Counted from the first letter of the stretch, positions 491 through 63,710 are shown. The stretch is 64,000 bases of DNA from Kiritimatiellia bacterium (GCA_050949565.1 JBMNFY010000017.1:1431299-1495298), one strand, 5' to 3'. Program-made: numbers and translations. Notes: generated by a model not told the origin, from the letters alone.

Positions 491-546
491 CAAACGTCAT
501 TTAGGATTTGTGATTTAGGATTTAGGATTTAGGATTTGGCGCTTGG

Positions 547-1711
547 AACCACGGAGACACAGAGACACAGAGGTTTTTTGGGAGGCTCTGCTCCAACCGC
601 AGGTCGCGGGTCGAATGTCGCGGGTCAACCTCTCTTATTGCGACCACAAAGTGGCTCGCAATCTTGAGAGTAAAAGCGCTGCTCGGGTTTGTTTAACCAC
701 AGAGAACACAGAGAGCACAGAGGGTTTTGGAGGGCATGGATGCGTTTTTTTAACGCAGAGACGCAGAGGCGCGGAGGTTTTTTGGAGGGAGCGCTGCTCG
801 GGTTTGTTTAACCACAGAGAACACAGAGAGCACAGAGGGTTTTTGAGGGCAGGGATGCGTTTTTTTAACGCAGAGACGCAGAGGCGCGGAGGTTTTTTGG
901 AGGGAGCGCTGCTCGGGTTTGTTTAACCACAGAGAACACAGAGAGCACAGAGGGTTTTGGAGGGCAGGGATGCGTTTTTTTAACGCAGAGACGCAGAGGC
1001 GCGGAGGTTTTTTGGAGGGAGCGCTGCTCGGGTTTGTTTAACCACAGAGAACACAGAGAGCACAGAGGGTTTTGGAGGGCATGGATGCGTTTTTTTAACG
1101 CAGAGACGCAGAGGCGCGGAGGTTTTTTGGAGGGAGCGCTGCTCGGGTTTGTTTAACCACAGAGAACACAGAGAGCACAGAGGGTTTTGGAGGGCATGGA
1201 TGCGTTTTTTTAACGCAGAGACGCAGAGGCGCGGAGGTTTTTTGGAGGGAGCGCTGCTCGGGTTTGTTTAACCACAGAGAACACAGAGAGCACAGAGGGT
1301 TTTGGAGGGCATGGATGCGTTTTTTTAACGCAGAGACGCAGAGGCGCAGAGGTTTTTTGGAGGGAACGCCTGCTCGGGTTTGTTTAACCACAGAGAACAC
1401 AGAGAGCACAGAGGGTTTTGGAGGGCATGGATGCGTTTTTTTAACGCAGAGACGCAGAGGCGCGGAGGTTTTTTGGAGGGAACGCCTGCTCGGGTTTGTT
1501 TAACCACAGAGAACACAGAGAGCACAGAGGGTTTTGGAGGGCATGGATGCGTTTTTTTAACGCAGAGACGCAGAGGCGCGGAGGTTTTTTGGAGGGAGCG
1601 CTGCTCGGGTTTGTTTAACCACAGAGAACACAGAGAGCACAGAGGGTTTTGGAGGGCATGGATGCGTTTTTTTAACGCAGAGACGCAGAGGCGCAGAGGT
1701 TTTTTGGAGGG
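547..1711. repeat. Tandem satellite array 1: ~10 copies of a 115/116-bp unit. Each unit is two related ~57-bp modules, 'AACCACAGAGAACACAGAGAGCACAGAGGGTTTTGGAGGG' and 'AACGCAGAGACGCAGAGGCGCGGAGGTTTTTTGGAGGG'
   Basis: Direct inspection. The motif GCTGCTCGGG recurs at 678, 793, 908, 1023, 1138, 1253, 1369, 1485 and 1600. There are a few SNPs (gcgcGgagg/gcgcAgagg; gAgcgctgc/aAcgcctgc). The first copy is degenerate. Confidence 0.9.
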
Positions 1712-1756
1712 AGCTGCCCTGTGGGCTCTGCCGGGACTGCGGGATCTGCGAGTGGT

Positions 1757-7664: not shown

Positions 7665-7675
7665 TTGTTCTCTCC

Positions 7676-8723: not shown

Positions 8724-8748
8724 ACGCTCCCTCTCTGTTACACGCCGG

Positions 8749-9400: not shown

Positions 9401-9418
9401 GGCGGCGTGAACGCCGCC
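9401..9418. terminator. GGCGGCG-tgaa-CGCCGCC hairpin 3' of the MFS gene
   Basis: Same hairpin family, with flank CCCACAGAACTGGA as at 16724. Confidence 0.4.
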
Positions 9419-9495
9419 CACAGAACTGGAGGGTGCGGCTACGGGCGCTGCCAGGGCTGCCGGTGGCGGCTCGCGGGGACGCTCGCCCTCCAGTG

Positions 9496-10755: not shown

Positions 10756-10874
10756 GGCTTCAAGGTCCGGGGGCTAAATGGTTAACAGTGGGAGCACTTG
10801 CAAAACCCTCGGATCACGGGCAAGATGCCCGTGCCACATCTGCAGGCCAAGAGTTTTGCAAGGAGCTCATCGAA

Positions 10875-27428: not shown

Positions 27429-27724
27429 GTGCGCAGTCGGGAGCGCGGGCGTCCCCGCCCGCTCTGTGAAAGGCCGATCGAGATTCCGATGCGCGGCATC
27501 CGGGCTCGCGGAGCGCCGGGAGGGGCAAGCGTCTGCTTGCCCGCGGACGAGCAGACGCTCGTCCCTCCCCCTGCGGGCAAAACAAAAAAAATCTGCGCAA
27601 TCTGTGCAAATCTGCGGATAAAACCGGAAAACCGCAAGACACGTTGTTGCGGGCGAGGACGCCCGCGCTCCCGACTCCCTGTCCTCCTTTTCACCAGAAA
27701 CGCATGATTTTCGCCCCCTGTCGC
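27429..27724. mobile_element. Composite REP/MITE-like element. Inverted 32-bp arms (GCGCAGTCGGGAGCGCGGGCGTCCCCGCCCGC) at 27431-27462 and 27645-27676 enclose nested GC hairpins, and a right-end TIR CGCCCCCTGTCGCTAACC follows
   Basis: Arm and TIR sequences recur at 32140-32175, 48372-48465 and 55180-55310. There is a minus-strand T8 tract at 27585-27592 after a hairpin. Confidence 0.65.
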
Positions 27725-31985: not shown

Positions 31986-32287
31986 CCGATTTCAAAACCT
32001 TTCGCTACTTTCGCCTCTTCCGCTATCAAAAAAGTCAGACAGGGTAACATGCCTCCACCCCGAATTCACGCAAAAAAGCACACCGCGCGGTAATTGGTAA
32101 TCGTTTAGTAACAAGGAGCATGCGAGTTTAGTGCGTGGTTTGTGTGTGCGCAGTCGGGAGCGCGGGCGTCCCCGCCCGCAGAAAGTTGAACGTTGAGCGT
32201 TAAACGTTTTTTAACTCTGAACGCTGAACGTCGAATGCTGAACGCTGAAGTGAAAAACTCCTAAATCCCAACTCCTAAATTCTCCTT

Positions 32288-35349: not shown

Positions 35350-37897
35350 ATTCGGTCGGATAGATGTACTCGGTGACGACCTTCATGATGGCTTCCTGCC
35401 CCGACTTGGTAACCACCTTGGGGGCCGACAGCAGATCCGTATCTGAACGCTGGCTCAGCATGTGCAGGATCATAGAGAGGTCAGCATTGCCAAGGAAAGC
35501 GTTGATACGCATGAAATTGTCGTTGATCCTGTTGCCTTCGCCGGCGATTGCGTTACCCTCGGTGCTCAGGTAGCGCTGACCGGTGCTGTAATTGACGCCA
35601 TCGATGGCATCAATGCTTGCGTTGTGATTGGGTGCGAGCACCGTGCCGTATTGGCCGGCACCGACCGCACCGGGCTTCAATGTGGCCCCGTCCCATCTAT
35701 AGCCACCCTGTCCGGCTGCGCTTCCGGGACGCGTATAGGGCGCATAGCCCATCAGCGGTGTCTCGCCATCAGCCGCAAACAGCGGGTGGCCCGCCGCATC
35801 CGTGAGCTGAGTCGGCTTGTTGCTGAACTCGCGCATGTTGAGCGCTTTGTCGAGGAAACCGCCAGCGTCGAAGCTGAAGTCGCTGTTCAGCAGCCACTCG
35901 AAACCGAGCGAGTTGAGGTCTTCCTGCGCGACCTCCACGAAGCGCGCCTCAATCTCGATCAAGCGGGGCGTGACGTTAAGGTCTTCCAGAACCTGCTCAA
36001 AGACAGCGAGTTGCTCAGCCGTATTGGTGACACGCAGCTTGCCGATGGTGGCGAGGTAGGAGATCGAGGAGCCGTCCGGCCACTTCACGCCCAACTGCTC
36101 GAAGAAGACCTTCCAGTCCTGCTTCTGACCCATGTCCGCCGTCTGCATAAAGGTTGTATCGCCGCCGCCGCCCTGCGGCCCCATCTCGCTGATCGCAGCC
36201 GTTACGCGGTCAGTCAGAGACGAGAGCACGTTGTAAGAGCGGGTCATCAGTTCGGTGTCCGGTTCGTTGGCCGGCACGATCATCACGATGTTGCCGCGGA
36301 TCTTGAACTTCATGCCGGTCACGTCGCAGACCAGCTTGAGAGCGTCGTAAAGGCTGATGAAGCGGGCGCTCAACGCCGAGATGGTCGGTGCCCCGCCCGG
36401 TGCCGGAGCGGCAGAGACCGGCGCGAAGGGATCCGGATTTTCCGGGGCAGGAGCAGCGGCGGTCGGGGTGGTGCTCAGCTTGAGCACGAGGTTCACGCCG
36501 CGCTGCTCGAGCGGAATTTCGGGCTTGTCGAAATCCCGGCTGGCCTGCTTAAAGAAGTCCACCGCATCGATAATGGTGGCGGGCGGACGGAAAGTGACTT
36601 CCGGAATGACGATATCGCGCAGCTTCTGCTGGACAACCTGCTCGGCCGTCTTGGTGCCCAGTGGATCGATGGTCGGCTCTTTACTTGTGAGATCGCCGCT
36701 CCCCTTGGGGCGCTGTGCACTATCGATGGCGTAGCGATCCGGCGTCCATGACGCACGCACGTCTCGGATCATCTTGCTGCGAGTGGCTTCAAACTCAATG
36801 TCCGAAACAGTTTTCATGCGGTCGGCGATGCGGTCGCGCAACTCCATGGCCTCAACCTCGTAGGGATGATCGCGCAGAATCAACTCACACTCCTCCATCG
36901 CTTTGTCATACTCGGCGGTGGTATAATACTGGCGCGAACGGCGCAGACGGCGCCGGATCTCGTCACGCTGCGTCTTGTATTCTTCCTCGTTGACGCGGTG
37001 CGAAATGCTGGAAGTATCGGCTTCGACCTTCGGCGGCTGACGCTTCAGTGCTTCAATCATACGCTCGGCCTGCGGATGGCCGTACTCTTTGGCCTGTGCG
37101 GCCAGCGGCAGCGCCTTCTCGACATCGGCCGCCTTCATCGCCTGCTTGGCATCCAGATAGAAGGCTTCGGCCATGCCGGCCTTGGCTTCATCGCGTGCAG
37201 CCTGGGTGGCGGGACGATTGCCGATGAACTCAAGCGCTTGCTTGTATTGATCCCGAGCCAACTCGTAGTCGCCAGCAGCCAAAGCTTTACGCGCGGCCTC
37301 CAGCGAGGCGAAGCCGTGGCTATCGAGCGACTTGCGGCGGATGGTCTCCAACGTCACCAGTTCCGATATCAAGCTGGCAGTGTCACCGTCCTGCTGCGCG
37401 ACAGCCGGAGTGGCAGGCGCGGGGGCCGCAGCGGGCTCAGCCGCCGGTGCGGGCGCAGGTTCTGCCGCCGGTGCAGGCGCAGGCTCTGCCGCCGGGGCAG
37501 GTGCGGGCTTTTCCTCAGCCTTGGGCTCTGCTGCGGGAGCAGGAGCGGGCGCAGGCTTTTCTTCAGCCTTAGGCTCTGCTGCGGGAGCAGGTGCCGGGGC
37601 GGGTTTTTCCTCGGCCTTCGGCTCTGCCGCCGGGGCAGGCGCGGGCTTTTCTTCAGCTTTCGGTTCCGCTGCAGGTGCGGGCGCGGGCGCAGGAGCCGGT
37701 TCGGCGGGTTTGGCCTCCGCCTTGGGCGCCGCCTCTGCGGCTGGAGCCGCCGGTTGCGCCGCCGCCGGTTTCTTACGCTGCCCACCCAAATCCTGCAACA
37801 GCGCTTCGAGATCATCTTGCGCGTACAGGCCGGTCACGGCTCCACAAGCCATGGCCGAAACACTCAACACTAACAACCACCGTTTACTATGCGTCAT
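35270..37897 (-). CDS. N-terminal part of the secretin: signal peptide, (PAPAPAAEPKAEEK)n low-complexity linker, TPR-like region and secretin N domains
   Basis: 'RLIEIEARFVEVAQEDLNSLGFEWLL' N-domain motif. The frame ends at 35270 before the secretin C-domain. Confidence 0.7.
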   Translation of the reverse strand: MTHSKRWLLVLSVSAMACGAVTGLYAQDDLEALLQDLGGQRKKPAAAQPAAPAAEAAPKAEAKPAEPAPAPAPAPAAEPKAEEKPAPAPAAEPKAEEKPAPAPAPAAEPKAEEKPAPAPAPAAEPKAEEKPAPAPAAEPAPAPAAEPAPAPAAEPAAAPAPATPAVAQQDGDTASLISELVTLETIRRKSLDSHGFASLEAARKALAAGDYELARDQYKQALEFIGNRPATQAARDEAKAGMAEAFYLDAKQAMKAADVEKALPLAAQAKEYGHPQAERMIEALKRQPPKVEADTSSISHRVNEEEYKTQRDEIRRRLRRSRQYYTTAEYDKAMEECELILRDHPYEVEAMELRDRIADRMKTVSDIEFEATRSKMIRDVRASWTPDRYAIDSAQRPKGSGDLTSKEPTIDPLGTKTAEQVVQQKLRDIVIPEVTFRPPATIIDAVDFFKQASRDFDKPEIPLEQRGVNLVLKLSTTPTAAAPAPENPDPFAPVSAAPAPGGAPTISALSARFISLYDALKLVCDVTGMKFKIRGNIVMIVPANEPDTELMTRSYNVLSSLTDRVTAAISEMGPQGGGGDTTFMQTADMGQKQDWKVFFEQLGVKWPDGSSISYLATIGKLRVTNTAEQLAVFEQVLEDLNVTPRLIEIEARFVEVAQEDLNSLGFEWLLNSDFSFDAGGFLDKALNMREFSNKPTQLTDAAGHPLFAADGETPLMGYAPYTRPGSAAGQGGYRWDGATLKPGAVGAGQYGTVLAPNHNASIDAIDGVNYSTGQRYLSTEGNAIAGEGNRINDNFMRINAFLGNADLSMILHMLSQRSDTDLLSAPKVVTKSGQEAIMKVVTEYIYPTEFEVQEVNTSGGSSTSSATYGVRSLHG

Positions 37898-37978
37898 CTG
37901 GAGAGACTCCTAATTTGTGGCAGCATCTTTTCCTTCAACAGGCAATAAAGGGTACCCATATTAGCTTGTGTGACATCA

Positions 37979-39052
37979 CTAATCAAGCTTGGGAATAACT
38001 TTTTGTTGCCCGTTAGCCTCGTTCTCTATCGTGACAACCGTTTTCTCACCATCCACGGTAAGGACGCGGTATGTTTCTTCGCGGACTTTGAACGTGCCAC
38101 CCTCCAACACCGTGTACTCGGCATTGTCGAGCGGGAACACGATCACCGCTTCAACATCTGTGACCTTTCCGCCTTCGTTGATTGTCAACGTCATCACCTT
38201 GTTGTCCGACAGTCTTTTCACTTCTACGGTCGAGACGTCCACCCGCATTTTGATGCCGGGCATATTAGGATTCTCGCGCTCGACGGATTTTGCCGTGACC
38301 GTTCCCGCAGCATAACCGGTCTCGCCGATCGGCTCATTCTCGCGCACCCAGTGGGTCCTGCGGATCGGTTCGACTTGGTTAAACACAATCTGGTTTTTGC
38401 CATCAGGCATCTTGTTGACGCCGCTGAAAATCAATGGCATGCGTTTGCCGCGCAACTCTTTCACGCGCAGGAGACTGACCAGCGGCGGATGTGATTTGGG
38501 GTCTTTCGGATCCGTCTTGGCGATGAACTCCTGAAGGTTGGTAAAGCCGTCGCCGTCGAGGTCGCCGTGGGCGTCCGCAGGGTCGTTCGGATTCAGACCA
38601 AGCGCAATCTCGATGCGATCCGGGATACCGTCGCCGTCGGTATCCAAGTCTGGATCCGCCTCCGCAGGTTTCGGTTGGCCGCCCCCGCAGAAGGGGCATT
38701 TCTCGGCGGCGTAGGGGATGGGTTTCTGGCACTCTTTAACCACGCAGGTCACACGCCGCTCCGGCATCAAAAAACCTGCCTTCTGGGCATCGGGAGTAGC
38801 AAGCTGCAACGGTGTGCGCGCCAACCGGATGGCGTCTTCAAACTCCGTCATGTCGATGGCTTTGAGGGCAGTGGAATCAGGCTTCAGCGAATCGATCCTG
38901 AGCTTGTAGTTCGCCTCTTCACGCTGCCGGGCAGGCCCTGCCGAGCGCGTGAGGTAAAACAGGGAGATGACGAGGCCAATCAGCACCACGACCACGATCA
39001 CTTTGTCGTAGTACTTGACGATGGGGTTATTCGCGTTGAATTTCAAGGCCAC
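37979..39052 (-). CDS. Membrane-anchored protein in the PilP position, with a CxxxC...CxxC zinc-ribbon-like motif and thrombospondin-type-3 Ca-binding repeats
   Basis: N-terminal TM; 'DTDGDGIPD...DLDGDGFTN'; sits between the PilO-like gene and the secretin. Confidence 0.45.
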   Translation of the reverse strand: MALKFNANNPIVKYYDKVIVVVVLIGLVISLFYLTRSAGPARQREEANYKLRIDSLKPDSTALKAIDMTEFEDAIRLARTPLQLATPDAQKAGFLMPERRVTCVVKECQKPIPYAAEKCPFCGGGQPKPAEADPDLDTDGDGIPDRIEIALGLNPNDPADAHGDLDGDGFTNLQEFIAKTDPKDPKSHPPLVSLLRVKELRGKRMPLIFSGVNKMPDGKNQIVFNQVEPIRRTHWVRENEPIGETGYAAGTVTAKSVERENPNMPGIKMRVDVSTVEVKRLSDNKVMTLTINEGGKVTDVEAVIVFPLDNAEYTVLEGGTFKVREETYRVLTVDGEKTVVTIENEANGQQKVIPKLD

Positions 39053-39055
39053 GGT

Positions 39056-40024
39056 TTATACTCCCTCAAACGAGTAGACATCGATCTCAAGTTTCACTGC
39101 CACCGGCGGTTCCAGTTCGGGATCGGTCACAATCCGTTCGACATGCGACAACTTGGCCGGATCGACAGGTTCCGCCGCGCCTTCGGCGGCAGCCTTCGAA
39201 GAACTCTCTTTTCTCTTGGCGTTGAACTGCGCCAAGGGATCGGCCGTCTTGCGCAACTCGGCTTCGGCCACAACCACAAACATATCCATGGCCGCCAGCC
39301 GGTTCAGCGCCTCAATGAGCGCAACAGGGCGCGCGACGAATTCGAGCGTAAAGCGCTGGCTGGTCCAATACGCCGACTCCGTGCGTGCGGCGGCCCCGGA
39401 TGCTCTGGCACTTCCGCCGCTGTCATCCCGGCGACGGGAACGGCGGCGCGAGGACGACTCCTGTTCCTCTTCCTCTTTTTTCACGACGTCAAAGACCTCG
39501 CGGGAAACGCTTCTCAACTCCATGATGCCGGCTGCGTAAAGCTCCTCACAGAGCTTCTCGATGATGGTCAGTTGCGCGGTCAGGCGATCCACATGTTCTG
39601 ACGCAGGCAGACTGTCGGACTGGCCAAGGTATTGGTCGAAGCCGAAGTTAAATCCGGGGGCGACAACCCTGCCCTGCACCGCACCGGCCTGAGCGGAGAG
39701 TTTGCGGACCGTAGCTTGAAGCGTCTGCTTGAAACTGGTCGGCGTTTTGGATTCAATCTGGAGGTCGCCTTTGTGAAGCTGATTGGAGGCGGTCACGAGC
39801 CAGCCTTCCAGCACCTTCTGATCCTCGCCGACGCGCGCGATATTCTCGTCGCTGGGGAAAACCTTGCCCCGGTAGATCTGCTGCAACGCCTGATATGCCT
39901 GGTCACGCTCTTCTGCCGCCCTGTTTTTGGCGGTTGTTTGGGTAAAGAGGAACCAGCCGGCAACGCCGCAGACAGCGGCCATCACGATGCCGCAAACGAT
40001 CATTATGATCTGTTGACGTTTCAT
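39056..40024 (-). CDS. PilO-like pilus assembly protein (TM plus coiled coil)
   Basis: Called from position and architecture only. Confidence 0.45.
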   Translation of the reverse strand: MKRQQIIMIVCGIVMAAVCGVAGWFLFTQTTAKNRAAEERDQAYQALQQIYRGKVFPSDENIARVGEDQKVLEGWLVTASNQLHKGDLQIESKTPTSFKQTLQATVRKLSAQAGAVQGRVVAPGFNFGFDQYLGQSDSLPASEHVDRLTAQLTIIEKLCEELYAAGIMELRSVSREVFDVVKKEEEEQESSSRRRSRRRDDSGGSARASGAAARTESAYWTSQRFTLEFVARPVALIEALNRLAAMDMFVVVAEAELRKTADPLAQFNAKRKESSSKAAAEGAAEPVDPAKLSHVERIVTDPELEPPVAVKLEIDVYSFEGV

Positions 40025-41712
40025 TTCGTTTCGGTATCCTTCGCGGCTGCTTCGGCCAACGTCGCCTCGATTGTAAACTCAATCAAATACGCCTCGATAT
40101 CCTTCTGGCCGGTGATTTTGACATCTTTCGGTCCATTGCCGAACACTGGCTGCGTCTTCAGACGGTCGCGCAACACCTCCAACGCTGTCGCACTGCGTCC
40201 GGCTTCGCGCTCTTTCTCCTCGACCGCCTTGAGCTTGTCCACCCAACCGCGTCCGACAATGCGCAATCCGGTCACAACGCCGCCCTCGTCCTTGATCGGC
40301 ACCAGTTCGGTGAGCCAGACCCCATCCAGCAGGCTTTTGCGCACGGCGTCCACGCGTTTCAGCCATGCCGTCCGCTGCAAGATCACGTCTCGCATCGCCT
40401 CGGCCTTCTTCGCGACCTCTCCTTCGGCAGCCTGCGCCTTGTTGAGCCGGGCCAGATCGCCCTTGCGCACGTCCAGCGCCGCGTTCACCTGCGCGCTCTG
40501 GGCATGGTAGAGTTCTGCGAGTTGCTTGGCGTGCACCGCCCAGATGAACAGGCAGAGCAACACGCCGGCCGCCGCCAGAGCAAAGTACGGCACGCGCTTC
40601 TTGAACGACTTGCGCTTCACGATCTCGGGCGGCATCAGGTTGATTTCAACCGGACACGCCAACGAGCGGCGCAGCGCCAATCCCACGCTCTCGGCCAACA
40701 CGAAGGCGTCTATGCTAACCCGGTCGCTATTGATCCGGTTGCTGATCCCGACGTTCTCAAACGGGTTGAGGTAGGTGACCTCAATCTGCAACTTGTCGTG
40801 AAAGAAGGTGTCCAGATGCGGCATAACCGACGAACCACCCGTCAGGAACATCCGGACCGGTGCGTTGCCGCCCTGCTGGCTACGATAAAAGTTAACGGAA
40901 CGATTGATTTCGGCGTGCAGACGCGTCACCACGTTGCGCACGATTTTCGAAACCCGCTCGGATGTCTCGTCCTCCGAGACGGTCACCCCGCCCAGCGATA
41001 CGAAAGCAACCTGCCGTTTCAATGCCTCGGCCTCTTCAAAGGAAATCTGGAAGCTCTTGGCGACCTCTTGCGTGATGGCATTACCGGCCACCGGGATGCA
41101 GCGGGTGTAAATTTTCTCGTCTTCAATAAAAATCAGATTGGTCGAACGCGAACCGATATCAAGCAACACCGTGCAGCCGTCCAACTGCGAGTAGTTGTAG
41201 CGCAGGCAGTTGTAGAGCGCCATCGGTGCCACATCGACGACCTCGGGCTCCAGCCCCATCTCCACGATGCGGTCGGTAATCTCGCGGACGTTCTCGGTCT
41301 TGGCCGCGACGATCATCGCACACTGCTCGCCCATTGTGGCGTCGCCGATGAACTGGTGGTTCCAAACGATCTCGCTCATCGGGAACGGGACGTTCTGCTC
41401 CACCTCGTACTGCACCATCTGGAGCAGTTTGTCCTCGGCGACGGCAGGCAACCGCACGAAACGCGGAAATACCATCTGACCGGAGAGCGAGAGCATCAGC
41501 GGCGCGGGGCGGATCCCGCATGTCTTCATGATCTCGCGGATAGCGGACTCCAGATTCGGACCAACACCTGTGTCGGTCTCCGGATTGCCTCCCACCTCGG
41601 CCATGCCGTAGTTGGTCAGCTCCGGCGCGCGCCCGCTCCTGACGGCGAATTCGGCCAATACAACTTTGCTCGCGCCCACATTGAGCGCGAGGATACGATC
41701 AGACGAGAACAC
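40021..41712 (-). CDS. pilM: Type IV pilus assembly ATPase-like PilM (actin/FtsA fold) fused to a PilN-like TM/coiled-coil C-terminus
   Basis: N-terminal 'ILALNVGASKV...' actin-like fold; TM 'VPYFALAAAGVLLCLFIWAV' at about aa 370, then coiled coil. Confidence 0.7.
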   Translation of the reverse strand: MFSSDRILALNVGASKVVLAEFAVRSGRAPELTNYGMAEVGGNPETDTGVGPNLESAIREIMKTCGIRPAPLMLSLSGQMVFPRFVRLPAVAEDKLLQMVQYEVEQNVPFPMSEIVWNHQFIGDATMGEQCAMIVAAKTENVREITDRIVEMGLEPEVVDVAPMALYNCLRYNYSQLDGCTVLLDIGSRSTNLIFIEDEKIYTRCIPVAGNAITQEVAKSFQISFEEAEALKRQVAFVSLGGVTVSEDETSERVSKIVRNVVTRLHAEINRSVNFYRSQQGGNAPVRMFLTGGSSVMPHLDTFFHDKLQIEVTYLNPFENVGISNRINSDRVSIDAFVLAESVGLALRRSLACPVEINLMPPEIVKRKSFKKRVPYFALAAAGVLLCLFIWAVHAKQLAELYHAQSAQVNAALDVRKGDLARLNKAQAAEGEVAKKAEAMRDVILQRTAWLKRVDAVRKSLLDGVWLTELVPIKDEGGVVTGLRIVGRGWVDKLKAVEEKEREAGRSATALEVLRDRLKTQPVFGNGPKDVKITGQKDIEAYLIEFTIEATLAEAAAKDTETK

Positions 41713-42413
41713 TATTGCACCACCTCGTAATCGTCCGGGTTAACCAAGGCAAACGGCGTCTTCGAACGCTCCAACAGCCCTGGGCGCCGGACCAAGAACG
41801 GATTGCCAGCCGCATCGCGCCTGTCCATCACGTTGGTGTCGCGCCACCACTCCTGCGGCAGTTGAATGCCGGTGGCCAGCGCCTCGCTGGCCACCACCTT
41901 ACCGTCCTTACCGGAAATTTCGAGTGCGATCGCGACCGGCTCGCCGTAGCGTTCCACGAGACTCGGCGGCAGAGCCACGCAACTCATGTGGCTGCCTTTC
42001 GGGATGTCGATGTACTTGACCGTCGCGGTGTAGTAACTGTAAATATCCTTGTTGTCGTCATCGCGGCCCTTGGTCATCACGTGGTAGATGAAGGTCAACT
42101 CGTCGGTCCACTTGGCGGAAGTTTCGTACCTCACCTCGAAGAGCGCCCACTCGCGCGGCCTGCGGCTGACTCTGGGCTGGACGTTGTTCACCGAATAGTT
42201 GAACTCGGGGGTTCTCACCATCGCCGTCTTGCCCGGCGGCGGGAAGCGCGTAATCTTGACCGTCTCCTCTTTCTTGGCCGTGGCCTGCGTAGCCGTACGC
42301 TGACTCAGCCGCCCGACCTGAGCCACAGCAGACTCAGCCAGACAGAAGAGGGCTGCTACCACACACACCGTTCGCAGAAACGTTTGCTCTCTTTTCATGT
42401 CGACGATCTCCAA
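41712..42413 (-). CDS. Secreted hypothetical protein, first gene of the pilus-like operon
   Basis: Signal peptide; shares a 1-nt overlap (coordinate 41712) with pilM. Confidence 0.5.
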   Translation of the reverse strand: MEIVDMKREQTFLRTVCVVAALFCLAESAVAQVGRLSQRTATQATAKKEETVKITRFPPPGKTAMVRTPEFNYSVNNVQPRVSRRPREWALFEVRYETSAKWTDELTFIYHVMTKGRDDDNKDIYSYYTATVKYIDIPKGSHMSCVALPPSLVERYGEPVAIALEISGKDGKVVASEALATGIQLPQEWWRDTNVMDRRDAAGNPFLVRRPGLLERSKTPFALVNPDDYEVVQ

Positions 42414-42684
42414 TCCGGGCCGAGGGAACCATCCTCTCTACGTCACCCTTTTATCATTTAGCACATCCAATTTAATCACATGCGGCGCAGAATGCAACAC
42501 AGAAACACAAATTTTTTCAGGAAATTTTTTCAAGGGCATAACTCCTAACTCCTAAATCCTAACTCCTAAATCTTCCTTGGAAGGAGATATCGCATTGCCT
42601 CCAGGGCGGTTTACGTGCCATAATCCCGCCTCACACATGCCGCATGGTCCCGGATGGTCGGGACAACGGCCTGAAGACACAGCT

Positions 42685-43155
42685 ATGATCGCCGATCTCA
42701 ATCCGCTTCATTATTTTACCACCCCTTGGTTCTGGTCCTCTTTCATCGGTTGGACCCTCGCCCAATCGATCAAGATGACCGTCGGCTTTGTCCGGACCCG
42801 GAAGATTGATTTCCGCTACCTGCTCAGCACCGGCGGCATGCCCAGCGCCCACTCTGCCATGGTCTGCGGCCTCTGCACGTCGGTCGGCCTGACCGAGGGA
42901 TTCGACTCGCCGGTCGCCGCGCTCGCGCTCGGCATCGCCGCCATCACAATGTTCGACGCCACCAATGTCCGGCGTGCCGCCGGCCATCAGGCGCGCGTGC
43001 TCAACGTGATGATCGAGGAGCTGTTCAAAGAGCATAAGCTACGCCACACGCGCCTCAAGGAATTACTCGGCCACACGCGCAAAGAGGTCTTTGCCGGTAT
43101 GCTCGTCGGCATCGCGGTGGCGCTGCTGGTCGTGCACTTCTGGCCGGCCGCGTAA
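42685..43155 (+). CDS. Divergent PAP2 / DUF212 (YuiD-like) membrane protein
   Basis: 'GGMPSAHSAMVCGL...' acid-phosphatase-like motif; the start is at an internal ATG. Confidence 0.6.
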   Translation: MIADLNPLHYFTTPWFWSSFIGWTLAQSIKMTVGFVRTRKIDFRYLLSTGGMPSAHSAMVCGLCTSVGLTEGFDSPVAALALGIAAITMFDATNVRRAAGHQARVLNVMIEELFKEHKLRHTRLKELLGHTRKEVFAGMLVGIAVALLVVHFWPAA

Positions 43156-43156
43156 G

Positions 43157-43545
43157 GCGCTGCTCGGTTTAACCACAGAGGCACGGAGGCACAGAGGTTT
43201 TTTGGAGCAACTAAGGGGCAGGTAATTAGACGACCACAAGAGGTTCAAGGGTTCAAGGGTTCAAGAGGTTCATCGGGATCGGGATCGCTATCGGGATCGG
43301 ACAGAACAGACAAAAACAGCGCAGCACTTTTACTCTCGCGGCTGCGGGGCGCTGCGTGGCCCAACAAAGAGAGGCTGACCCGCGACATTCGACCCGCGAC
43401 CTGCGGCGGTAGCGATACCGATACCGATAGCGATACCGATAGCGAACTAATGCGGGCGGAGCCCGCAACCCAATTCTTACCACGAAGTCACGAAGGAACA
43501 CGAGGGGTCCAAAAACCTCTGTGCCTCCGTGTCTCCGTGGTTCAA
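43157..43545. mobile_element. MITE-like element of ~385 bp with ~35-bp terminal inverted repeats (AACCACAGAGGCACGGAGGCACAGAGGTTTTTTGG / reverse complement). Internal (GGTTCAAG)x3, GGGATCGGGATCGCTATCGGGATCG and its near-inverse CGATACCGATACCGATAGCGATACCGATAGCG
   Basis: Direct inspection. The TIR module matches the units of array 1 (547-1711) and partial copies at 48190-48272 and 63582-63710. Confidence 0.7.
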
Positions 43546-43551
43546 CAAAAA

Positions 43552-43700
43552 CTCCTAAATCCTTGTCTATAAATTGACAGGATTACATGATTTACATGAT
43601 TTTCAGGATTGAATAACATCATGTTAATCATGTAATCATGTCCTAAACTTACTCCATGGTTTTTTCGTGGCGAAGCCACGCGGCAGGCTAACTCCTAAAT
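43552..43700. mobile_element. 149-bp AT-rich element, copy B (identical to 3637-3785), flanked by CTCCTAAAT direct repeats
   Basis: Base-by-base identical to copy A. The TAG stop of cimA (43695-43697, minus strand) lies inside the right repeat. Confidence 0.7.
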
Positions 43701-45296
43701 CCGCGCGCTGCGAGGCTGCGCGGCCGCGCGGGTTTCGAAGAGCTTGTGCTCGATGCTGTCCAGCAACGCTTGCCACGACGCCTCGATAATGTTTTCGGAG
43801 ACGCCCACAGTGCTCCACTGGCGTGTGCCGTCGCCGGACTCGATCAGTACGCGCGTCACCGCCCGGGTCGCCTCTTCCGGATCAAGGATGCGCACCCGGT
43901 AGTCCGTCAGCGCGATCTGCTCGATCTCAGGATAGAAGCGCGTCAGGGCCTGGCGTAGCGCCGCGTTGAGCGCGTCAACCGGACCCTGCCCTTCGCCGGC
44001 CGTCAGCCCGGTCACGCCGCCGACCTTGATCTTGACCGTGGCTTCAGAGAGGCACGGCTCTTCGTTGCCGCGCTTCTCGACAATCACGCGGAAGCCCTCT
44101 AACTCGAAGAAGGGATGGTGCTGGTTGAGCACTTTCTGCAGCAGGATCTTAAAGGAGCCATCCGCCGACTCGTAGGAATAGCCCTGCTCCTCGCGCCGCT
44201 TGACCTCGTCCAGAATCGCCCGCGCCCGCTCTTTGTCCAATCCGCTGAAATCGGTGCCCAACTCGGCGGCCTTCATCATCACGTTGGACGCGCCCGATAA
44301 TTCGGAGACCAGCACATGGCGCTGATTGCCCACCGCCTCGGGGGCGATGTGCTCGAAGGTGCGCGTGTTTTTCTGGATGGCATTGACATGCGCGCCCGCC
44401 TTGTGACTGAAGGCTGAGCGTCCCGTGTAAGGCTGACGCGGGTCCGGCCGCTGATTGGCCAGGTCGTCGGTCACCAGTGAAACCTCGCGCAGCCGGCGCA
44501 GCCGCTCGGCGCCCACGCACTCAAACCCCATCTTCAGTTCGAGCGCGGGGATGATCGTGGTCATGTTGGCGTTACCGGTGCGTTCGCCGTAGCCGTTGAT
44601 GCAGCCCTGCACCTGACGCGCACCGGCACGCACGGCTTCCAGCGAACTGGCCACCGCCAACCCGCCGTCATTGTGCGTATGGATGCCGACCTGCGCATCG
44701 GGCAATGCCGCGCACACTGCCTGTGTGATCGTGAAAACCTCGTGCGGCAGGGTACCGCCGTTGGTATCGCAGAGCACCACACCAGCGGCCCCCTCGCGCA
44801 TCGCCATCTGTAGCGTGTTCAGCGCATATTCTGGATCATCCTTGTAGCCATCGAAAAAATGCTCGGCATCAAAAAACACGCTCCGCCCCGCCGCCCGCAG
44901 GAAACCCACGGTGTCGGCGATCATCTGCAAGTTGTTCTCGCCGGTGGTGCGTAGCACATCGCGCACGTGCATCAGCCATGATTTGCCGTAGATCGTGACC
45001 CACTCGGTCTCTGCCGCCAGCAGGCCGGCGAGTTGCGGGTCGCCCTGCGCGTCCAGATCCACGCGCCGCGTGCTGCCGAACGCGACGATGCGGGCGTGCG
45101 ACAATTGCTCCTTGCGGATGTCGTCGAAAAAACGGCGGTCACGCGGGTTTGACCCCGCAAACCCTCCCTCGATAAAATCGACCCCGAACTCATCCAGCAG
45201 ATGCGCGAAACGCACCTTGGCTGTATCCGAGAAGGAGATGCCCTCGCCCTGCGCCCCGTCGCGCAGCGTCGTGTCGTAGATGTAGACTTTTTCCAT
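43695..45296 (-). CDS. cimA: (R)-citramalate synthase / 2-isopropylmalate synthase family (CimA-like)
   Basis: 'YDTTLRDGAQ...EGGFAGSNPRD' resembles the Geobacter-type CimA N-terminus; C-terminal LeuA-dimer-like region; 533 aa. Confidence 0.7.
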   Translation of the reverse strand: MEKVYIYDTTLRDGAQGEGISFSDTAKVRFAHLLDEFGVDFIEGGFAGSNPRDRRFFDDIRKEQLSHARIVAFGSTRRVDLDAQGDPQLAGLLAAETEWVTIYGKSWLMHVRDVLRTTGENNLQMIADTVGFLRAAGRSVFFDAEHFFDGYKDDPEYALNTLQMAMREGAAGVVLCDTNGGTLPHEVFTITQAVCAALPDAQVGIHTHNDGGLAVASSLEAVRAGARQVQGCINGYGERTGNANMTTIIPALELKMGFECVGAERLRRLREVSLVTDDLANQRPDPRQPYTGRSAFSHKAGAHVNAIQKNTRTFEHIAPEAVGNQRHVLVSELSGASNVMMKAAELGTDFSGLDKERARAILDEVKRREEQGYSYESADGSFKILLQKVLNQHHPFFELEGFRVIVEKRGNEEPCLSEATVKIKVGGVTGLTAGEGQGPVDALNAALRQALTRFYPEIEQIALTDYRVRILDPEEATRAVTRVLIESGDGTRQWSTVGVSENIIEASWQALLDSIEHKLFETRAAAQPRSARI

Positions 45297-45310
45297 AGGC
45301 TTCGCCCGCG

Positions 45311-46663
45311 TCAGAAGAACGCTTTGTAGAGCGCTTGCACGGCCTTGGCGCGCTGCTCGGCTTTGACGCCGAACATCATGCTGATTTCGGAAGAGCCCTG
45401 GTTCATCATCTCAATGTTGACCCCGGCGTCGGAGAGCGCCCGGGTGGCCTTGGCGGCCATGCCCACTGTGTAGTAGAGCCCCTCGCCCACCACCATGATC
45501 AACGCATAGCCGCGTTCGACCAGCACAGCGTCAGGGTTGAGGTCACGCTTGATGCGCTCCACCACGCGGCGCTCGCACTCCGGACTGAAGTTCTTGTCGC
45601 GGATCACCACGGAGACGTTGTCGATACCCGAGGGCATGTGTTCGTATGAGACGCCTTCCCACTCCAGGATCTGCAACAGGTGACGCCCGAAACCAACCTC
45701 GCGGTTCATCATGTACTTGTCGACAAAGATGTTGCAGAAGCCGTCGTCGCTCGCGATGCCCACGACACATCCCGCCAGCACACGGCGCGTCTGCACGATC
45801 ATCGTGCCCGGCTCTTCGGGCCGGTTGGTGTTGCGCACGTTGATCGGCACGCCGGCCTTGATCGCCGGGACGACCGCCTCGTCGTGGAAAACACCGAACC
45901 CGGCATAGGAAAGCTCACGCATCTCACGGTAGGTCATCACCGGTATCCCGGACTTGACCTCCGGCACCAGACGCGGGTCGACCGGATAGACCGAGTCGAC
46001 ATCCGTGAAATTCTCGTAGACACTGGCCTTGACCGCCGCCGCCAAGATCGCTCCGGTAATGTCCGAACCGCCACGCGGGAAGGTCGCCACCTGGCCCTCT
46101 TTTGTATAACCGAAAAACCCGGGGAAGATCACCAGCTCATCATGGTCGATCAACGTCTTGGCGATGTTCTGATACGATTCGTCAAGCAGCCGCGCGTTGT
46201 CGTAGTCATTCGTCAGATACATGCCGGCATCCTGGGGGCTCATATACGTCGCACGCGCGCCGCGTGACTGGAAGGCCTGGGCCACCAGCTTGGCGCTGTT
46301 ATCCTCGCCGGCCGCCTTCATGCTGGCCAGAAAAATGCCGCGGTGCGACTTGTCGCCCGCCAGGCGGAAGCGCAGGTCTTTTTCGATTTCGGCGGTGATG
46401 CCGTCCGGCAGACCCAACTCACGCTGGATTTCAGCATAGCGTTCCACAATAGCGGCGAGTGCCGCCTCGTAATCTCCGTCCACCAGCGCCAGTTCAGCGC
46501 ACGCCATCAGCAGATCGGTGACCTTGACGTCGTCCTTTGTGCGTTTGCCTGGTGCCGACACGACCACGATGCGGCGCTCCGGATCGGCCAGCACGATATC
46601 CACAATCTTGGCCACTTGCTCCGCGTTGGCGAGTGATGTCCCGCCGAATTTACATACCTTCAT
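45311..46663 (-). CDS. Aspartate kinase
   Basis: 'KFGGTSLA' N-terminus and C-terminal ACT domains. The ATG at 46663 is preceded by a GGGAG ribosome-binding site. Confidence 0.9.
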   Translation of the reverse strand: MKVCKFGGTSLANAEQVAKIVDIVLADPERRIVVVSAPGKRTKDDVKVTDLLMACAELALVDGDYEAALAAIVERYAEIQRELGLPDGITAEIEKDLRFRLAGDKSHRGIFLASMKAAGEDNSAKLVAQAFQSRGARATYMSPQDAGMYLTNDYDNARLLDESYQNIAKTLIDHDELVIFPGFFGYTKEGQVATFPRGGSDITGAILAAAVKASVYENFTDVDSVYPVDPRLVPEVKSGIPVMTYREMRELSYAGFGVFHDEAVVPAIKAGVPINVRNTNRPEEPGTMIVQTRRVLAGCVVGIASDDGFCNIFVDKYMMNREVGFGRHLLQILEWEGVSYEHMPSGIDNVSVVIRDKNFSPECERRVVERIKRDLNPDAVLVERGYALIMVVGEGLYYTVGMAAKATRALSDAGVNIEMMNQGSSEISMMFGVKAEQRAKAVQALYKAFF

Positions 46664-46683
46664 CGCCACATCCACTCCCTCTG

Positions 46684-47991
46684 CTAGATCATTCTCAGTT
46701 TAACCGGCTCTTCATTCAGTACGCCCGCGGCCCGGATTTCGCGCAGCGCCGCGTCCATCTCTGCGCCTTTAGCCGGATGTGTCAGGATCACCACCGGCAC
46801 ATATCCGGCATCGGCCGCCAACTCAGCGGGCGGCTCTTGCTGCGTGGCCGCCAGGATGCTCACGCCGTGACGGCCGAGAATGGTCGTCATCGTGCCCAGC
46901 GAACCGGCCTTGTCCAGCACCATCAACCGCACGTAGTAGCGGCTGACAATCTCTGCGGCGGGGCGCACGCGCAACTGACCCTGATTGGCCGTACACACGC
47001 CGCGCCGATAGCGCGACCGGCCCGACATCAGGTTGCGCGCGATGTCGCCGATATCGCCGATCACGGTGCTGGCCGTAGGTTCGCGTCCGGCCCCGCGCCC
47101 GTAATAGAGCGTATCGCCGCTGAGGTCGCCGTGCACCATCGCCGCGTTGAACACTTGGTTCACCGAAGCCAGCATGTGCGTGAGCGGCACCAGCGTGGGA
47201 TGCACGCGCACCTCCACCTCGCCGGCATCGCGCTTGACCACGGCCAGCAGCTTGATGCGGTATCCGAACCCGGCCGCGAATTTGACGTCCATGCCCGACA
47301 GATTGCGGATGCCCTCCACCAGCACCTGATCCAGCGGCACGTGAAAGCCGTACGCCAGCGAAGCCAGAATGACCGCCTTGTGCGCCGTATCCAGCCCATC
47401 GATATCCAAGGCTGGATCGGCTTCGGCATAACCGGCCTTCTGCGCCTCTTTCAACACTTTGGCAAACGGCAACCCCTCGCGCTCCATGCGTGTCAGGATG
47501 TAATTGCAGGTGCCGTTGAGAATCCCGTGGATGCTCTGGATCTCATTGCCCGCCAGCCCCTCGCGCAACACGCGGATGATCGGGATGCCGCCGCCCACGC
47601 TCGCACCGAAATAGATGTCTACGCCGTTCTTCTCGGCGGCGCCGAAAATCTCCTCGCCGCATTCAGCCAGCAGCTTCTTGTTGGCCGTGACCACCGACTT
47701 GCCGGCATTCAGCGCGGCCAGCACGAAGGTTTTAGCCACACCGGTGCCGCCGATGAGTTCCACGACGATCTGGATGGCGGGGTCATTGATGATCGTCATC
47801 GCGTCGGTCGTCAGCAACGCAGGATCGACCTTCACACCACGGTCAGTCGTGATGTCGACATCCGCGATACGCTTGAGCACGGTCTCAACGCCCAGCCGCT
47901 GCGCCATCACCTTGCGGTTGCGCTGCAGGCCGTCCACGACGCCCGCGCCCACAGTCCCGAATCCGATAAGCCCTACACCGATCTGCTTCAT
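46684..47991 (-). CDS. hom: Homoserine dehydrogenase
   Basis: 'IGVGLIGFGTVG' Rossmann motif and C-terminal ACT domain; 435 aa. Confidence 0.9.
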   Translation of the reverse strand: MKQIGVGLIGFGTVGAGVVDGLQRNRKVMAQRLGVETVLKRIADVDITTDRGVKVDPALLTTDAMTIINDPAIQIVVELIGGTGVAKTFVLAALNAGKSVVTANKKLLAECGEEIFGAAEKNGVDIYFGASVGGGIPIIRVLREGLAGNEIQSIHGILNGTCNYILTRMEREGLPFAKVLKEAQKAGYAEADPALDIDGLDTAHKAVILASLAYGFHVPLDQVLVEGIRNLSGMDVKFAAGFGYRIKLLAVVKRDAGEVEVRVHPTLVPLTHMLASVNQVFNAAMVHGDLSGDTLYYGRGAGREPTASTVIGDIGDIARNLMSGRSRYRRGVCTANQGQLRVRPAAEIVSRYYVRLMVLDKAGSLGTMTTILGRHGVSILAATQQEPPAELAADAGYVPVVILTHPAKGAEMDAALREIRAAGVLNEEPVKLRMI

Positions 47992-48189
47992 ACCCTTTGC
48001 CTTCCTGTGGCTGTCAAAAAAACGAAGGCTATAGGGTAGTAAAAAACAGGAAGAGGAACAAGCTTAAGACGAAGCCGAAGATCGGTTAGCCTAAAAAGAG
48101 CAGTTGAACCGTCAACTCTCTTTGGTTTCTGGTTTCAAGGCTTCATGGTTTCATCCAAATCGGGATCGGGATCGCTATCGGGATCGATT

Positions 48190-48272
48190 GTTTAACCACG
48201 GAACACACCGAACACACGGAAAGGCATGGCTCTGTTTCCGTGTGTTTAGTGTGTTCCGTGGTTCCAATCAGA
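48190..48272. repeat. Long hairpin: a 29-bp stem with two mismatches, AACCACGGAACACACCGAACACACGGAAA ... TTTCCGTGTGTTTAGTGTGTTCCGTGGTT. It is a MITE-TIR-like 'GTTTAACCAC' module folded on itself. GGGATCGGGATCGCTATCGGGATCG sits upstream at 48161
   Basis: Direct inspection. Confidence 0.7.
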
Positions 48273-48371
48273 AATTGCGTTCTGCACCAAACAGGTGCGG
48301 CGAGGATCGCGATGAAAGCCAATGTTTACGCGGCTTTGCTCAAAATCCGTACGCCCAACTGCCGTTTTTAG

Positions 48372-48465
48372 GGTTAGTGACAGGGGGTGCGAGTCGGGCG
48401 TTTCTGGTGAAAAGGGGGGCAGGGAGTCGGGAGCGTGGGCGTCCTCGCCCGCAACAACGTGTCTC
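48372..48465. repeat. Partial REP/MITE copy: left TIR GGTTAGTGACAGGGGGTGCGAGTCG plus the core ...GTTTCTGGTGAAAAGGGGGGCAGGGAGTCGGGAGCGTGGGCGTCCTCGCCCGC
   Basis: Same family as 55180-55310 and 27645-27724. Confidence 0.65.
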
Positions 48466-48879
48466 GCAAAAGGCTGATGCTTACACATACTCGTTTTTAG
48501 GTTTTTTGACAGGATTTACATGATTAACATGATTTGACAACACTAAGGGACAGGTGTTTTGGCCACGCTAAAAATGCCCAAGTTATGGGCAAGGAAAGGA
48601 GCACGGACATTCCTGTCCGTGCCACGGGTTGGAAAACCCGTGCCCCTGTTTTAATGCCAAGTTATAGGCAAGACGATTGATTTAGACGATTCTCAAGTGG
48701 CGTGGCTCGCGGAGCGCTGGGAGGGACGAGCGTTGCTCGTCCGGGCGGCGTTTCACGCCGCCACACGGGCAAGATGCCCGTGCCACACAGCCCGGCACCT
48801 GCAACTAGGGGACAGGTATTTAGACCCCCAAAAAACCTTCGTGCCCTTTGTGCCTTTGTGTGAGAAAAAACTCCTGCCT

Positions 48880-50298: not shown

Positions 50299-50412
50299 GG
50301 TTCCATGGTATCCTAACGGCTGACGCCGGGTCAATGAAACCGACGTTTACTTTTTAGACCAGCCCCCTCCCACCCTCGAACGAAATCCATCCCTTGCGAT
50401 GGGATTGTGCTG

Positions 50413-55179: not shown

Positions 55180-55310
55180 ATCGGTTAGTGACGGGGGCAC
55201 GCGAGGATCATGCGTTTCTGGTGAAAAGGGGAGCCGAGAGTCGGTTTTTGGACATGATAGACATGAGCACCAACCACGCACTCGACTCGCACCCCCTGTC
55301 ACTAACCGAT
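55180..55310. mobile_element. Complete ~130-bp MITE with 26-bp TIRs (ATCGGTTAGTGACGGGGGCACGCGAG / CTCGACTCGCACCCCCTGTCACTAACCGAT)
   Basis: Direct inspection; lies between the GH109-like gene start and the giant gene. Confidence 0.7.
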
Positions 55311-63581: not shown

Positions 63582-63710
63582 TTGTTTGTTTAACGCAGAG
63601 GCGCAGAGACGCAGAGGTTTTTTTGGAGGGAACGCGCTCCCGGACAAACTAATGCACTAAGTAACTAACGCACTAATTAACTTGGGTTGCGGGCTGCGCC
63701 CGCATTAGCA
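63582..63710. repeat. Partial MITE copy: GTTTAACGCAGAGGCGCAGAGACGCAGAGGTTTTTTTGGAGGG plus TTGGGTTGCGGGCTGCGCCCGCATTAG (reverse complement of 43441-43467)
   Basis: Direct comparison with 43157-43545. Confidence 0.65.

Follow-up and report, generated by a model that had tools for sequence, protein, structure and literature searches.

Genomic setting and inverted repeats of element A

The window analysed here, a 64-kb stretch of DNA from a Kiritimatiellia bacterium whose coordinates are used throughout, contains at positions 43157-43545 a sequence of approximately 390 bp without coding capacity, which we refer to as element A. It is located in the spacer between two convergent genes, namely a DUF212 gene on the plus strand (listed open reading frame (ORF) 42577-43155, stop codon at 43153-43155, family assigned from Pfam) and the gene of citramalate synthase (cimA, 533 aa) on the minus strand (43695-45296). 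The TTG start listed for the DUF212 ORF is probably too far upstream. The gene neighbourhood, which includes a pilus cluster of the Amuc_1100/1102 type, and the names of the homologues assign the organism to Kiritimatiellia; it is found mostly in anaerobic-digester and sediment metagenomes. An initial annotation, made from the sequence alone, regarded element A as a miniature inverted-repeat transposable element (MITE). Our analysis points, with moderate confidence, to a nested patchwork of small repeat modules and not to one transposon.

Terminal inverted repeats, as in MITEs, are present. The outer arms of element A (43167-43202 and 43511-43546) each measure 36 nt, with 92% complementarity and 308 nt between them; their earlier description as near-perfect repeats of 35 bp was slightly generous, since alignment by hand revealed differences at two A/G positions and a T-run of six T versus five. 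A long internal imperfect inverted repeat and internal microsatellites had also been reported and could both be located, the former at 43273-43300 and 43418-43445 (28 nt, 86%) and the latter, by Tandem Repeats Finder, at 43237-43272 (period 8) and 43410-43445 (period 6/12/18). The 394-nt stretch of element A is predicted to fold as a single long hairpin, as DNA or RNA and on either strand, with z-scores of -5.4 to -6.7 and with none of 100 shuffled sequences folding as well. In addition, 13 copies of the octamer CACAGAGG are present in the window versus 1.76 expected, a count reached in none of 100 shuffles.

Rfam covariance models gave no match in the whole window at the gathering score, and for 43100-43750 the E-value mode returned only weak matches at chance level (E >= 0.08). 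No site of the intrinsic terminator consensus was detected in 43000-43800; an intrinsic terminator was rejected on this basis and on the position of the T-run, which is found on the loop side of the hairpin. An integron attC site was rejected as well: the left GTTTAAC fits RYYYAAC, but the right GTTCAAC departs from GTTRRRY, and a cassette ORF is lacking.

Modular composition of element A

The constituents of element A and the related repeats of the window are listed in Table 1; sequences used for comparison are cited by their L numbers. From these comparisons, element A can be resolved into at least eight modules, which are found again at other places with a different order and orientation.

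Table 1. Position and strand of the constituents of element A and of related repeats in the window.
Feature	Position	Strand	Basis or remark
GCGCTGCTCGG, tail motif of recurrent unit	43157..43167	+	Begins right after the DUF212 stop
Left arm: GTTTAAC, octamers CACAGAGG CACGGAGG CACAGAGG, T6 GG	43167..43205	+	Inverted repeat I1
Small module CAACTAAGGGGCAGGTAATTAGACGA	43206..43233	+	Variants by eye at ~48545 and ~48840
(GGTTCAAG)n word run	43234..43272	+	Tandem repeat, period 8
(GGGATC)n run TCGGGATCGGGATCGCTATCGGGATCG, left arm of inner inverted repeat	43273..43299	+	Inverted repeat I3
Degenerate unit: (GTCGCRR)n, GTCAACCTCTC, hairpin ATTGCGACCAC-NCA-GTGGTCGCAAT, GAGWGTAAAAG	43312..43407	-	nhmmer, E = 3e-15
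(CGATAC)n run, right arm of inner inverted repeat	43410..43445	+	Inverted and tandem repeat searches
GC hairpin module CTAATGCGGGCGGAGCCCGCAACCCAA	43447..43473	+	Inverted copy at 63682-63708, 96%
(CACGAAGN)x3 word triplet, ACCACGAAGTCACGAAGGAACACGAGGGG	43479..43507	+	Read from sequence
Right arm: octamer triplet, T5	43509..43546	-	Inverted repeat I1; strand of citramalate synthase, which the arm follows
Octamer module and complete unit, 3' of response-regulator gene	546..700	+	Undisrupted version of element A's minus-strand half
Array 1: nine 115-bp units, each with two octamer-triplet and T-run modules	675..1714	+	Repeat searches D2, D3, D6
Octamer module, T-run, (CACTAAYG)n, GC hairpin	63584..63708	+	~90% identical by eye to L103 (Kiritimatiellia metagenome-assembled genome)
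Family B: 283-bp MITE, 20-bp inverted termini CCTAAAAAGAGCAGTTGAAC / CAACTGCCGTTTTTAGG	48090..48372	+	Filled and empty alleles, duplication
Family C: separate 150-bp repeat bounded by ACTCCTAAAT direct repeats, hairpin 43576-43603 / 43615-43642	43551..43700		

On the DUF212 side, the 11-mer GCGCTGCTCGG also precedes the octamer module in seven units of array 1 and represents the end of a conserved unit, ...GTAAAAGCnCTGCTCGG, in 20 aligned copies. The left arm is 92-97% identical over 31-40 nt to sequences of Dehalococcoidia, Phycisphaeraceae, Pirellula, a deltaproteobacterium, Desulfurivibrionaceae and Acidobacteriaceae. Variants of CAACTAAGGGGCAGGTAATTAGACGA were also encountered in L063, L165 and, inverted, L211, with differing neighbourhoods, and the (GGTTCAAG)n run is homologous to a (GGTTTCAWGG)n run; in family B, as in dozens of metagenome contigs, this run stands before the GGGATC run. 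The 28 nt at 43272-43299, which cover the GGGATC run, are 100% identical to 48159-48186 in family B, and the exact 27-mer 43273-43299 is found in at least 119 metagenome contigs. The genomic contexts in these contigs are almost entirely different, with the modules permuted among them, and the copy number of the word runs varies between copies.

Towards the citramalate synthase gene, positions 43313-43413 form an inverted copy of 590-690 (101 nt, 78%), while the inner core 43272-43445 recurs alone, as one piece, in L145 and L233 (176 nt, 78%). The GC hairpin module CTAATGCGGGCGGAGCCCGCAACCCAA was found in L074 and L201 too. The (CACGAAGN)x3 triplet has the same architecture as the octamer module, and in L003 a variant with the word CACGAAG is followed by a T-run; in the latter contig, the octamer unit forms the junction with a different upstream gene. 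The right arm is 94% identical to the octamer module at 546-578. Finally, units in L087, L063 and L019 correspond to the minus-strand half of element A, which, however, has approximately 100 extra nt made of other modules.

The complete recurrent unit has the order octamer triplet, T-run, GGRGG, (GTCGCRR)n, GTCAACCTCTC, hairpin ATTGCGACCAC-NCA-GTGGTCGCAAT and GAGWGTAAAAG-CnCTGCTCGG, and is present at 546-700 of the window and in metagenome-assembled genomes (MAGs) of the Planctomycetota-Verrucomicrobiota-Chlamydiota (PVC) group (L087, L063 and L019). The alignment of 20 copies of the unit revealed that its 11-bp hairpin is kept, with two covarying pairs. The unit, conserved over ~110 nt (window 584-696, L087:2948-3070, L063:541-656, L145, L172 and L237, among others), is in most cases followed by the next word-triplet module.

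Arm-like modules are also present as single copies and in tandem. Both halves of the 115-bp array-1 unit are related to the arm of element A, and the direct-repeat families D3 and D6 share the terminal module, so that its proposed role as a building block of this array was borne out. The partial inverted copy reported at 63582-63710 was likewise recovered, comprising the inverted GC hairpin (43447-43473 versus 63682-63708) and the octamer module at 63584-63623. Related modules thus form both dispersed copies and arrays, in agreement with the earlier idea of a family seeding the two kinds of repeats.

History of the spacer and behavior of element A

Sister lineages possess the same convergent gene pair, with citramalate synthase 84-91% identical. 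The spacer between the two genes measures 0 bp in L132 and L133, 14 bp in L134, 18 bp in L261, 124 bp in L130 and L131, and about 370 bp in L258-L260, versus 539 bp in the window. Ancestrally, the spacer was close to 0 bp. This comparison shows the whole 539-bp spacer of the window to be lineage-specific inserted DNA, absent at the same gene pair in five sister lineages. The sister lineages carry other word runs at this spacer, and where filler is substantial, namely in three lineages including that of the window, its sequence bears no relationship from one lineage to the next; the spacer has therefore been refilled rapidly and on independent occasions. In the species of the window the 539-bp block is fixed, being identical in nine of the ten strain contigs with an identical synthase and differing by a single nucleotide polymorphism (SNP) in the tenth. 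Of the view that 43157-43545 is a MITE, the part that stands is that the sequence is inserted DNA, made of dispersed modules; its being a single MITE does not.

No target-site duplication was detected at any plausible boundary of element A, where ...GCTGCTCG is followed by GTTTAACC on the left and GGTTCAAC by AAAAACTC on the right. A second full-length copy was absent from the window, from the 8 kb upstream of it (L001) and from the at least 119 contigs carrying the 27-mer, the best match in those sequences being the inner 176 nt at 78%. Filled and empty alleles were also lacking in the ten strain contigs, and no precise empty site could be aligned because the sister lineages carry other filler. 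In the same contigs where element A is invariant, family B is polymorphic.

A mobile MITE of the same neighbourhood

Family B, 4.5 kb away from element A, is a genuine, currently polymorphic and mobile MITE that passes every sequence test. It carries a GGGATC run and a hairpin (48194-48222 and 48235-48263; 29 nt, 93%); the 29-bp-stem hairpin indicated earlier at 48190-48272 is hence real (48194-48263) and adjoins the GGGATC run shared with element A. The element is flanked by a 5-bp duplication, GTTAG, at 48085-48089 and 48373-48377. Among contigs with identical citramalate synthase, the site is filled in L008, L010, L012 and L014, as in the window, and reads GATCGGTTAG[element]GTTAGTGACAGG, while the exact empty site GATCGGTTAGTGACAGG could be aligned in L007, L009, L013 and L015, and L011 has the same short spacer. 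The difference between filled and empty sites is 288 bp, matching the 283-bp element plus the 5-bp duplication. Approximately 25 other insertion sites with distinct flanks were identified in metagenome contigs, several of them with 5-bp duplications (CTAAA, TTGAA, TTTAC, GTAAT and CTTAA), and two further copies are situated just upstream of the window (L001:5767-6057 and 6198-6480). Inverted termini, duplication, filled and empty alleles and numerous sites together identify family B as a MITE.

Two observations concern the surroundings of this insertion. A dispersed repeat (GGTTAGTGACAGGGGGTGCGAGTCGGG ... GAGTCGGGAGCGYGGGCGTCCYCGCCCGC) occurs at 27435-27729, 32136-32180, 48372-48467 and 55201-55307 (up to 96 nt, 89%), and family B is inserted at the edge of one copy. 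Moreover, L007 (GCA_040772185.1):2326-3306, compared with window 47992-48879, exhibits a tandem duplication of ~379 bp in the spacer between UxaC and homoserine dehydrogenase, without family B.

The arm motif in other phyla

The arm motif, TTnAC-(CRCRGAGR)x3-T5+, was searched for with the pattern CRCRGAGRCRCRGAGGTTTTT in one genome per species (596 Gb). At least 124 matches in at least 113 stretches were obtained, versus approximately nine expected according to our estimate from the information content of the pattern. Those listed belong to Planctomycetota, Verrucomicrobiota, Kiritimatiellia, Chloroflexota, Acidobacteriota, Bacteroidota, Cyanobacteria and Alpha-, Gamma- and Deltaproteobacteria, with further matches in Spirochaetota, Chlamydiia, Nitrospirae, KSB1, Cloacimonadota and Bacillota; cultured carriers include Nostoc, Lewinella, Sphingomonas and Kouleothrix. 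Positions that the pattern leaves unconstrained are also conserved, namely the third upstream octamer (69-79% consensus at core positions) and the TTnAC prefix, whose variants across phyla are TTAAC, TTCAC, CTCAC and TTCGC. Since the motif is common to many phyla, the presumed terminal inverted repeat is no marker of a family-specific transposon end.

The motif is intergenic in 88 of the 124 listed matches. Its commonest context is the convergent-gene spacer (28 of 66 fully classified cases), and for many cross-phylum matches an ORF on the same strand stops 10-40 nt before the motif. In co-directional spacers it runs with the genes in 12 cases and against them in 15. An inverted partner is found downstream, with the T-run on the loop side, in 55 of the 124 listed matches, and upstream in 3.

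Hairpin doublets with a 24-bp stem were noted among L017-L129, for example in L043, L091, L098, L105 and L125. In L017, a Phycisphaeraceae MAG, two inverted module copies ~180 bp apart share at least 60 nt and bound an element of ~220 bp. The Spirochaetaceae chromosome OZ245363.1 contains kilobase-scale tandem arrays (L054:4867-7850 and L118:169-5616) with spacings of ~111 and 188 bp; the presence of the octamer module in each unit makes these arrays a parallel to array 1 of the window. Among Nostocales, L025, L031, L032 and L068 carry the motif, and in at least three of these loci (L025, L031 and L068) translation by hand places it at the 3' end of seemingly one coding region, where it encodes the C-terminus ...SRRGAEVF, followed by a stop. 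The motif can thus be absorbed into genes.

A number of other interpretations of the motif were rejected. Only two matches were found in IMG/VR, about the number that we estimate by chance, and plasmids yielded a single weak match, in Calothrix, which speaks against a phage or plasmid vector. A coding role of the module was dismissed because the stop in the prefix (TGA or TAA) falls in different frames among the variants, leaving no conserved peptide. CsrA sites, G-quadruplexes, Rho rut sites, extracytoplasmic function (ECF) promoters, DnaA boxes and attC sites are each at odds with the A/G variation or with the spacing. A full-text literature search with the octamer strings on both strands retrieved no paper containing the motif, and a search on intergenic repeats of Kiritimatiellia retrieved nothing.

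We tentatively raise the possibility that the arm motif represents an undescribed pan-bacterial repeat class, with 90-97% identity over ~30-40 nt in at least 12 phyla. If so, it would imply a shared recognition machinery, e.g., a widespread mobilising enzyme specific for hairpins or single-stranded DNA, or alternatively a universal function at the RNA or DNA level at gene 3' ends. Should a common enzyme or gene-end function indeed exist, the motif would stand for an unrecognized and very widespread class of elements.

Search for a mobilising enzyme

As had been stated initially, no transposase is encoded nearby. Pfam hits of the called genes included no transposase domain in L001 (approximately window 1-12,300 plus the 8 kb upstream) or L007 (approximately 37,700-51,300), nor did the 17 further window ORFs that were scanned. 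For an autonomous element bounded by the module (inward pairs 0.3-6 kb apart in the loci of the motif scan), the longest ORF of each of five pairs was inspected by eye and none was transposase-like; they appeared ordinary, e.g., metallophosphoesterase-like or aldehyde-dehydrogenase-like. Likewise, no recurrent transposase emerged among the 119 repeat-bearing contigs, in which no ORF cluster was common to more than three loci.

A gene resembling Y1 transposases of the REP-associated tyrosine transposase (RAYT) type, REP standing for repetitive extragenic palindromic, was the sole ORF of mobile-element character in these contigs; it was observed at L241:11245-12210 and also in L139 and L228, with the HUH motif HFH. 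Its ORF scored 24.2 bits against Pfam Y1_Tnp (cut-off 23) and 45 bits against NCBIfam REP_Tyr_transpos (cut-off 80). The modules do not flank the gene in L241, L139 or L228. According to the sequence, it adjoins a CRISPR-associated-like gene, with a GGGATC module 3.6-7.6 kb away, and in L139 and L228 its reading frame continues into the next gene.

Origin of element A

On balance, we favor the interpretation of element A as a composite cluster of selfish miniature repeats in a permissive convergent spacer, comparable to REPINs and to bacterial interspersed mosaic elements (BIMEs). The outer arms constitute an inverted doublet of a polar module, consisting of a T-rich lead, three CRCRGAGR words and a T-run, and each copy points away from the gene upstream of it, in a REPIN-like manner. 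Between the arms lies an independent inner palindromic element, formed by the (GGGATC)n run, the hairpin unit and the (CGATAC)n run, with modules of ~25-40 nt around it. This mosaic, REPIN-like origin is supported by the rapid turnover of the spacer, the mosaicism, the mobility of family B, the doublets, the tandem arrays, the folding and the RAYT-like gene.

With respect to mechanism, the modules would have spread via an enzyme supplied in trans. For relatives that make duplications, such as family B, the candidate is a cut-and-paste DDE transposase. For the doublets, it may be a hairpin-recognising enzyme of the Y1/RAYT type, by analogy with RAYT-mobilised REPINs (PMC3116915, PMC3733652). 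Mobility in trans is documented for family B only. Recombination and slippage between word runs could later have reshuffled the copies, resulting in a sequence of ~390 nt that can fold into a long hairpin as single-stranded DNA or as RNA. What the sequences show directly is the insertion relative to sister lineages, the mosaic composition, the mobility of family B and the presence of the arm motif in many phyla; the identity of the enzyme, the order in which the modules became nested and any effect on the flanking mRNAs are inferred.

Several points weigh against a REPIN-like cluster. No enzyme is tied to the modules; the RAYT-like gene scores below the NCBIfam cut-off (45 versus 80 bits) and is not flanked by them. 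The octamer module is no palindrome and has no GTAG or CGTC head, and is therefore not a classical REP, while element A itself is monomorphic and its own mobility was never observed. Near-identity over 30 nt across phyla hints at something beyond selfish spread alone, i.e., a function or a conserved recognition machinery. Finally, all five octamer-module sites of the window are co-oriented with the upstream gene, which could reflect a role at the RNA level. Across phyla, the polarity of the motif relative to the upstream gene is not significant.

Given the cross-phylum conservation and the co-orientation in the window, a functional RNA is the natural alternative. Element A would then be a host-beneficial element of RNA 3' regions acting on the convergent transcripts, with possible roles in preventing read-through, in shielding 3' ends against exonucleases, or in making ribosomes pause or sequestering them by GGAGG/AGAGG words similar to Shine-Dalgarno sequences; REP and BIME elements are thought to act similarly on RNA 3' regions. 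In line with this, the module begins 12 nt downstream of the DUF212 stop, resembling the many matches of other phyla that closely follow a stop on their strand, conservation extends to motif positions unconstrained by the pattern, folding is strong, and neither viral contigs nor plasmids are enriched in the motif. However, the spacer has no terminator-like site, the T-run being on the loop side of the hairpin, and no Rfam match; element A is not conserved at the locus even where citramalate synthase is ~90% identical; co-directional spacers reveal no cross-phylum polarity (12 versus 15); and in many copies the GGA/GGAGG words are broken by A/G variation. The lack of conservation at the locus, of terminator features and of cross-phylum polarity weighs against a locus-specific function. 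We regard this explanation as unlikely. A single non-autonomous MITE, bounded by inverted termini of ~36 bp and moved as a unit by a transposase encoded elsewhere, appears quite improbable. Its arms (36 nt, 92%), its non-coding nature at ~390 bp and its absence from sister lineages are what such an element would display, and both family B, a true MITE with related modules, and the inverted module pair of L017 bounding ~220 bp provide precedents. Nevertheless, there is no target-site duplication and, in the sequences searched, no other full-length copy (only the inner 176 nt at 78%), the ten strain contigs in which family B varies are uniform for element A, its interior consists of modules that recur independently in other orders, and arm-like modules are also found singly and in tandem.

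We consider a purely local origin, by slippage, duplication and inversion of short words with convergent low-complexity resemblances, very improbable. The region is indeed rich in runs of 6-9-nt words with approximately three or more copies, whose number varies between copies, and sister lineages have other word runs at the site. This origin is, however, largely refuted by matches between loci that are too long for convergence (101 nt at 78%, 176 nt at 78%, 28 nt at 100% and, inverted, 27 nt at 96%), and the family B relative exhibits true insertion with duplication.

Other repeats of the window and implications

The remainder of the 539-bp spacer, outside element A, is filled by family C. Its copy at 43551-43700 is 100% identical to 3636-3785, 40 kb away, and diverged copies (76-80%) were found in L147, L232 and L251. 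The ends of family C provide three stop codons, i.e., those of the ORF ending at 3649 (TAA), of a diacylglycerol kinase-like gene (ATT TAG) and of citramalate synthase (ATT TAG). In L004 and L005, nrdR and the next ORF are joined to citramalate synthase across the exact 150-bp repeat (window 3290-3785 / 43551-45296). Either some strains have undergone a 40-kb deletion or recombination, or the junction is a chimera of the assembly; a k-mer of 141 nt, shorter than the repeat, is suggested by k141 in the contig name.

Array 2 (2305-3278) contains nine units of 106 bp, each with ATTTAGG runs, a (CATGAAAC)x3 triplet and a GC-rich hairpin. Its spacer measures 130, 236, 342 or 978 bp across assemblies, differences in copy number that may be real or may stem from collapsed repeats in short-read assemblies. 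Runs of the heptamers (ATTTAGG)n / (CCTAAAT)n and (GCTAGTG)n border intergenic blocks, frequently in inverted pairs that enclose a whole spacer (504-539 versus 1823-1858), and were observed at 499-537, 1818-1858, 2305-3285, 4723-4807 and 42539-42572 of the window and at L001:4918-4950. As 7 is not a multiple of 3, three heptamer copies put a stop in every frame on both strands.

The result for the locus is mostly corrective, in that an apparently tidy MITE turned out to be a nested repeat cluster, with a mobile MITE a short distance away. Element A is of an ordinary kind, a miniature-repeat mosaic, in an under-studied clade; the most consequential finding is that many phyla have the arm motif in nearly unchanged form. 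More generally, intergenic spacers of these Kiritimatiellia are rebuilt at a very high rate out of small modules belonging to a common kit, and the repeats supply stop codons to neighbouring genes. They also probably mislead short-read assemblers, as in L004 and L005, where loci 40 kb apart are joined.

Comparison with known systems

Like bidirectional intrinsic terminators, element A places a hairpin between convergent genes with T-runs near, but the T-run is on the loop side and not after the 3' arm, and the stems measure 24-36 bp. Bacterial MITEs, e.g., Correia/NEMIS and Nezha, are non-autonomous derivatives of DDE transposons. Element A resembles them in being small, non-coding, bordered by inverted repeats and inserted relative to related genomes, and differs from them in its internal patchwork and in lacking a duplication, full-length copies in the sequences searched and polymorphism; an autonomous partner was found in these sequences neither for element A nor for family B. 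Nested intergenic mosaics have reportedly been seen in cyanobacteria as well, where small dispersed repeat (SDR) modules are said to insert into repeats and into heptamer runs (short tandemly repeated repetitive sequences, STRR) with no known enzyme; the mosaics appear similar, although the phylum and the sequences differ.

The closest comparison is with REPINs, which are REP doublets forming hairpins and are linked to RAYT Y1 transposases (Bertels and Rainey, 2011, PMC3116915; Di Nocera et al., 2013, PMC3733652). A REP unit is defined as an imperfect palindrome of 20-40 nt with a GTAG or CGTC head (PMC3733652), while the arm module is a triplet of 8-nt direct words between T-runs, without palindrome or such a head. 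Furthermore, a RAYT gene flanked by these modules was not found in L241, L139 and L228, and the arm motif is nearly the same across many phyla, in contrast to REP families, which are mostly specific to a species or clade (PMC3116915, PMC3733652). In other respects the likeness to REPINs and BIMEs is considerable: the modules are short and extragenic, and they are found as singlets, as inverted doublets with predicted hairpins and in ordered tandem clusters, the last having been described for REPINs too (PMC3116915). The modules favor convergent spacers and positions 3' of coding regions, and they form mosaic clusters with other repeats and no adjacent transposase.

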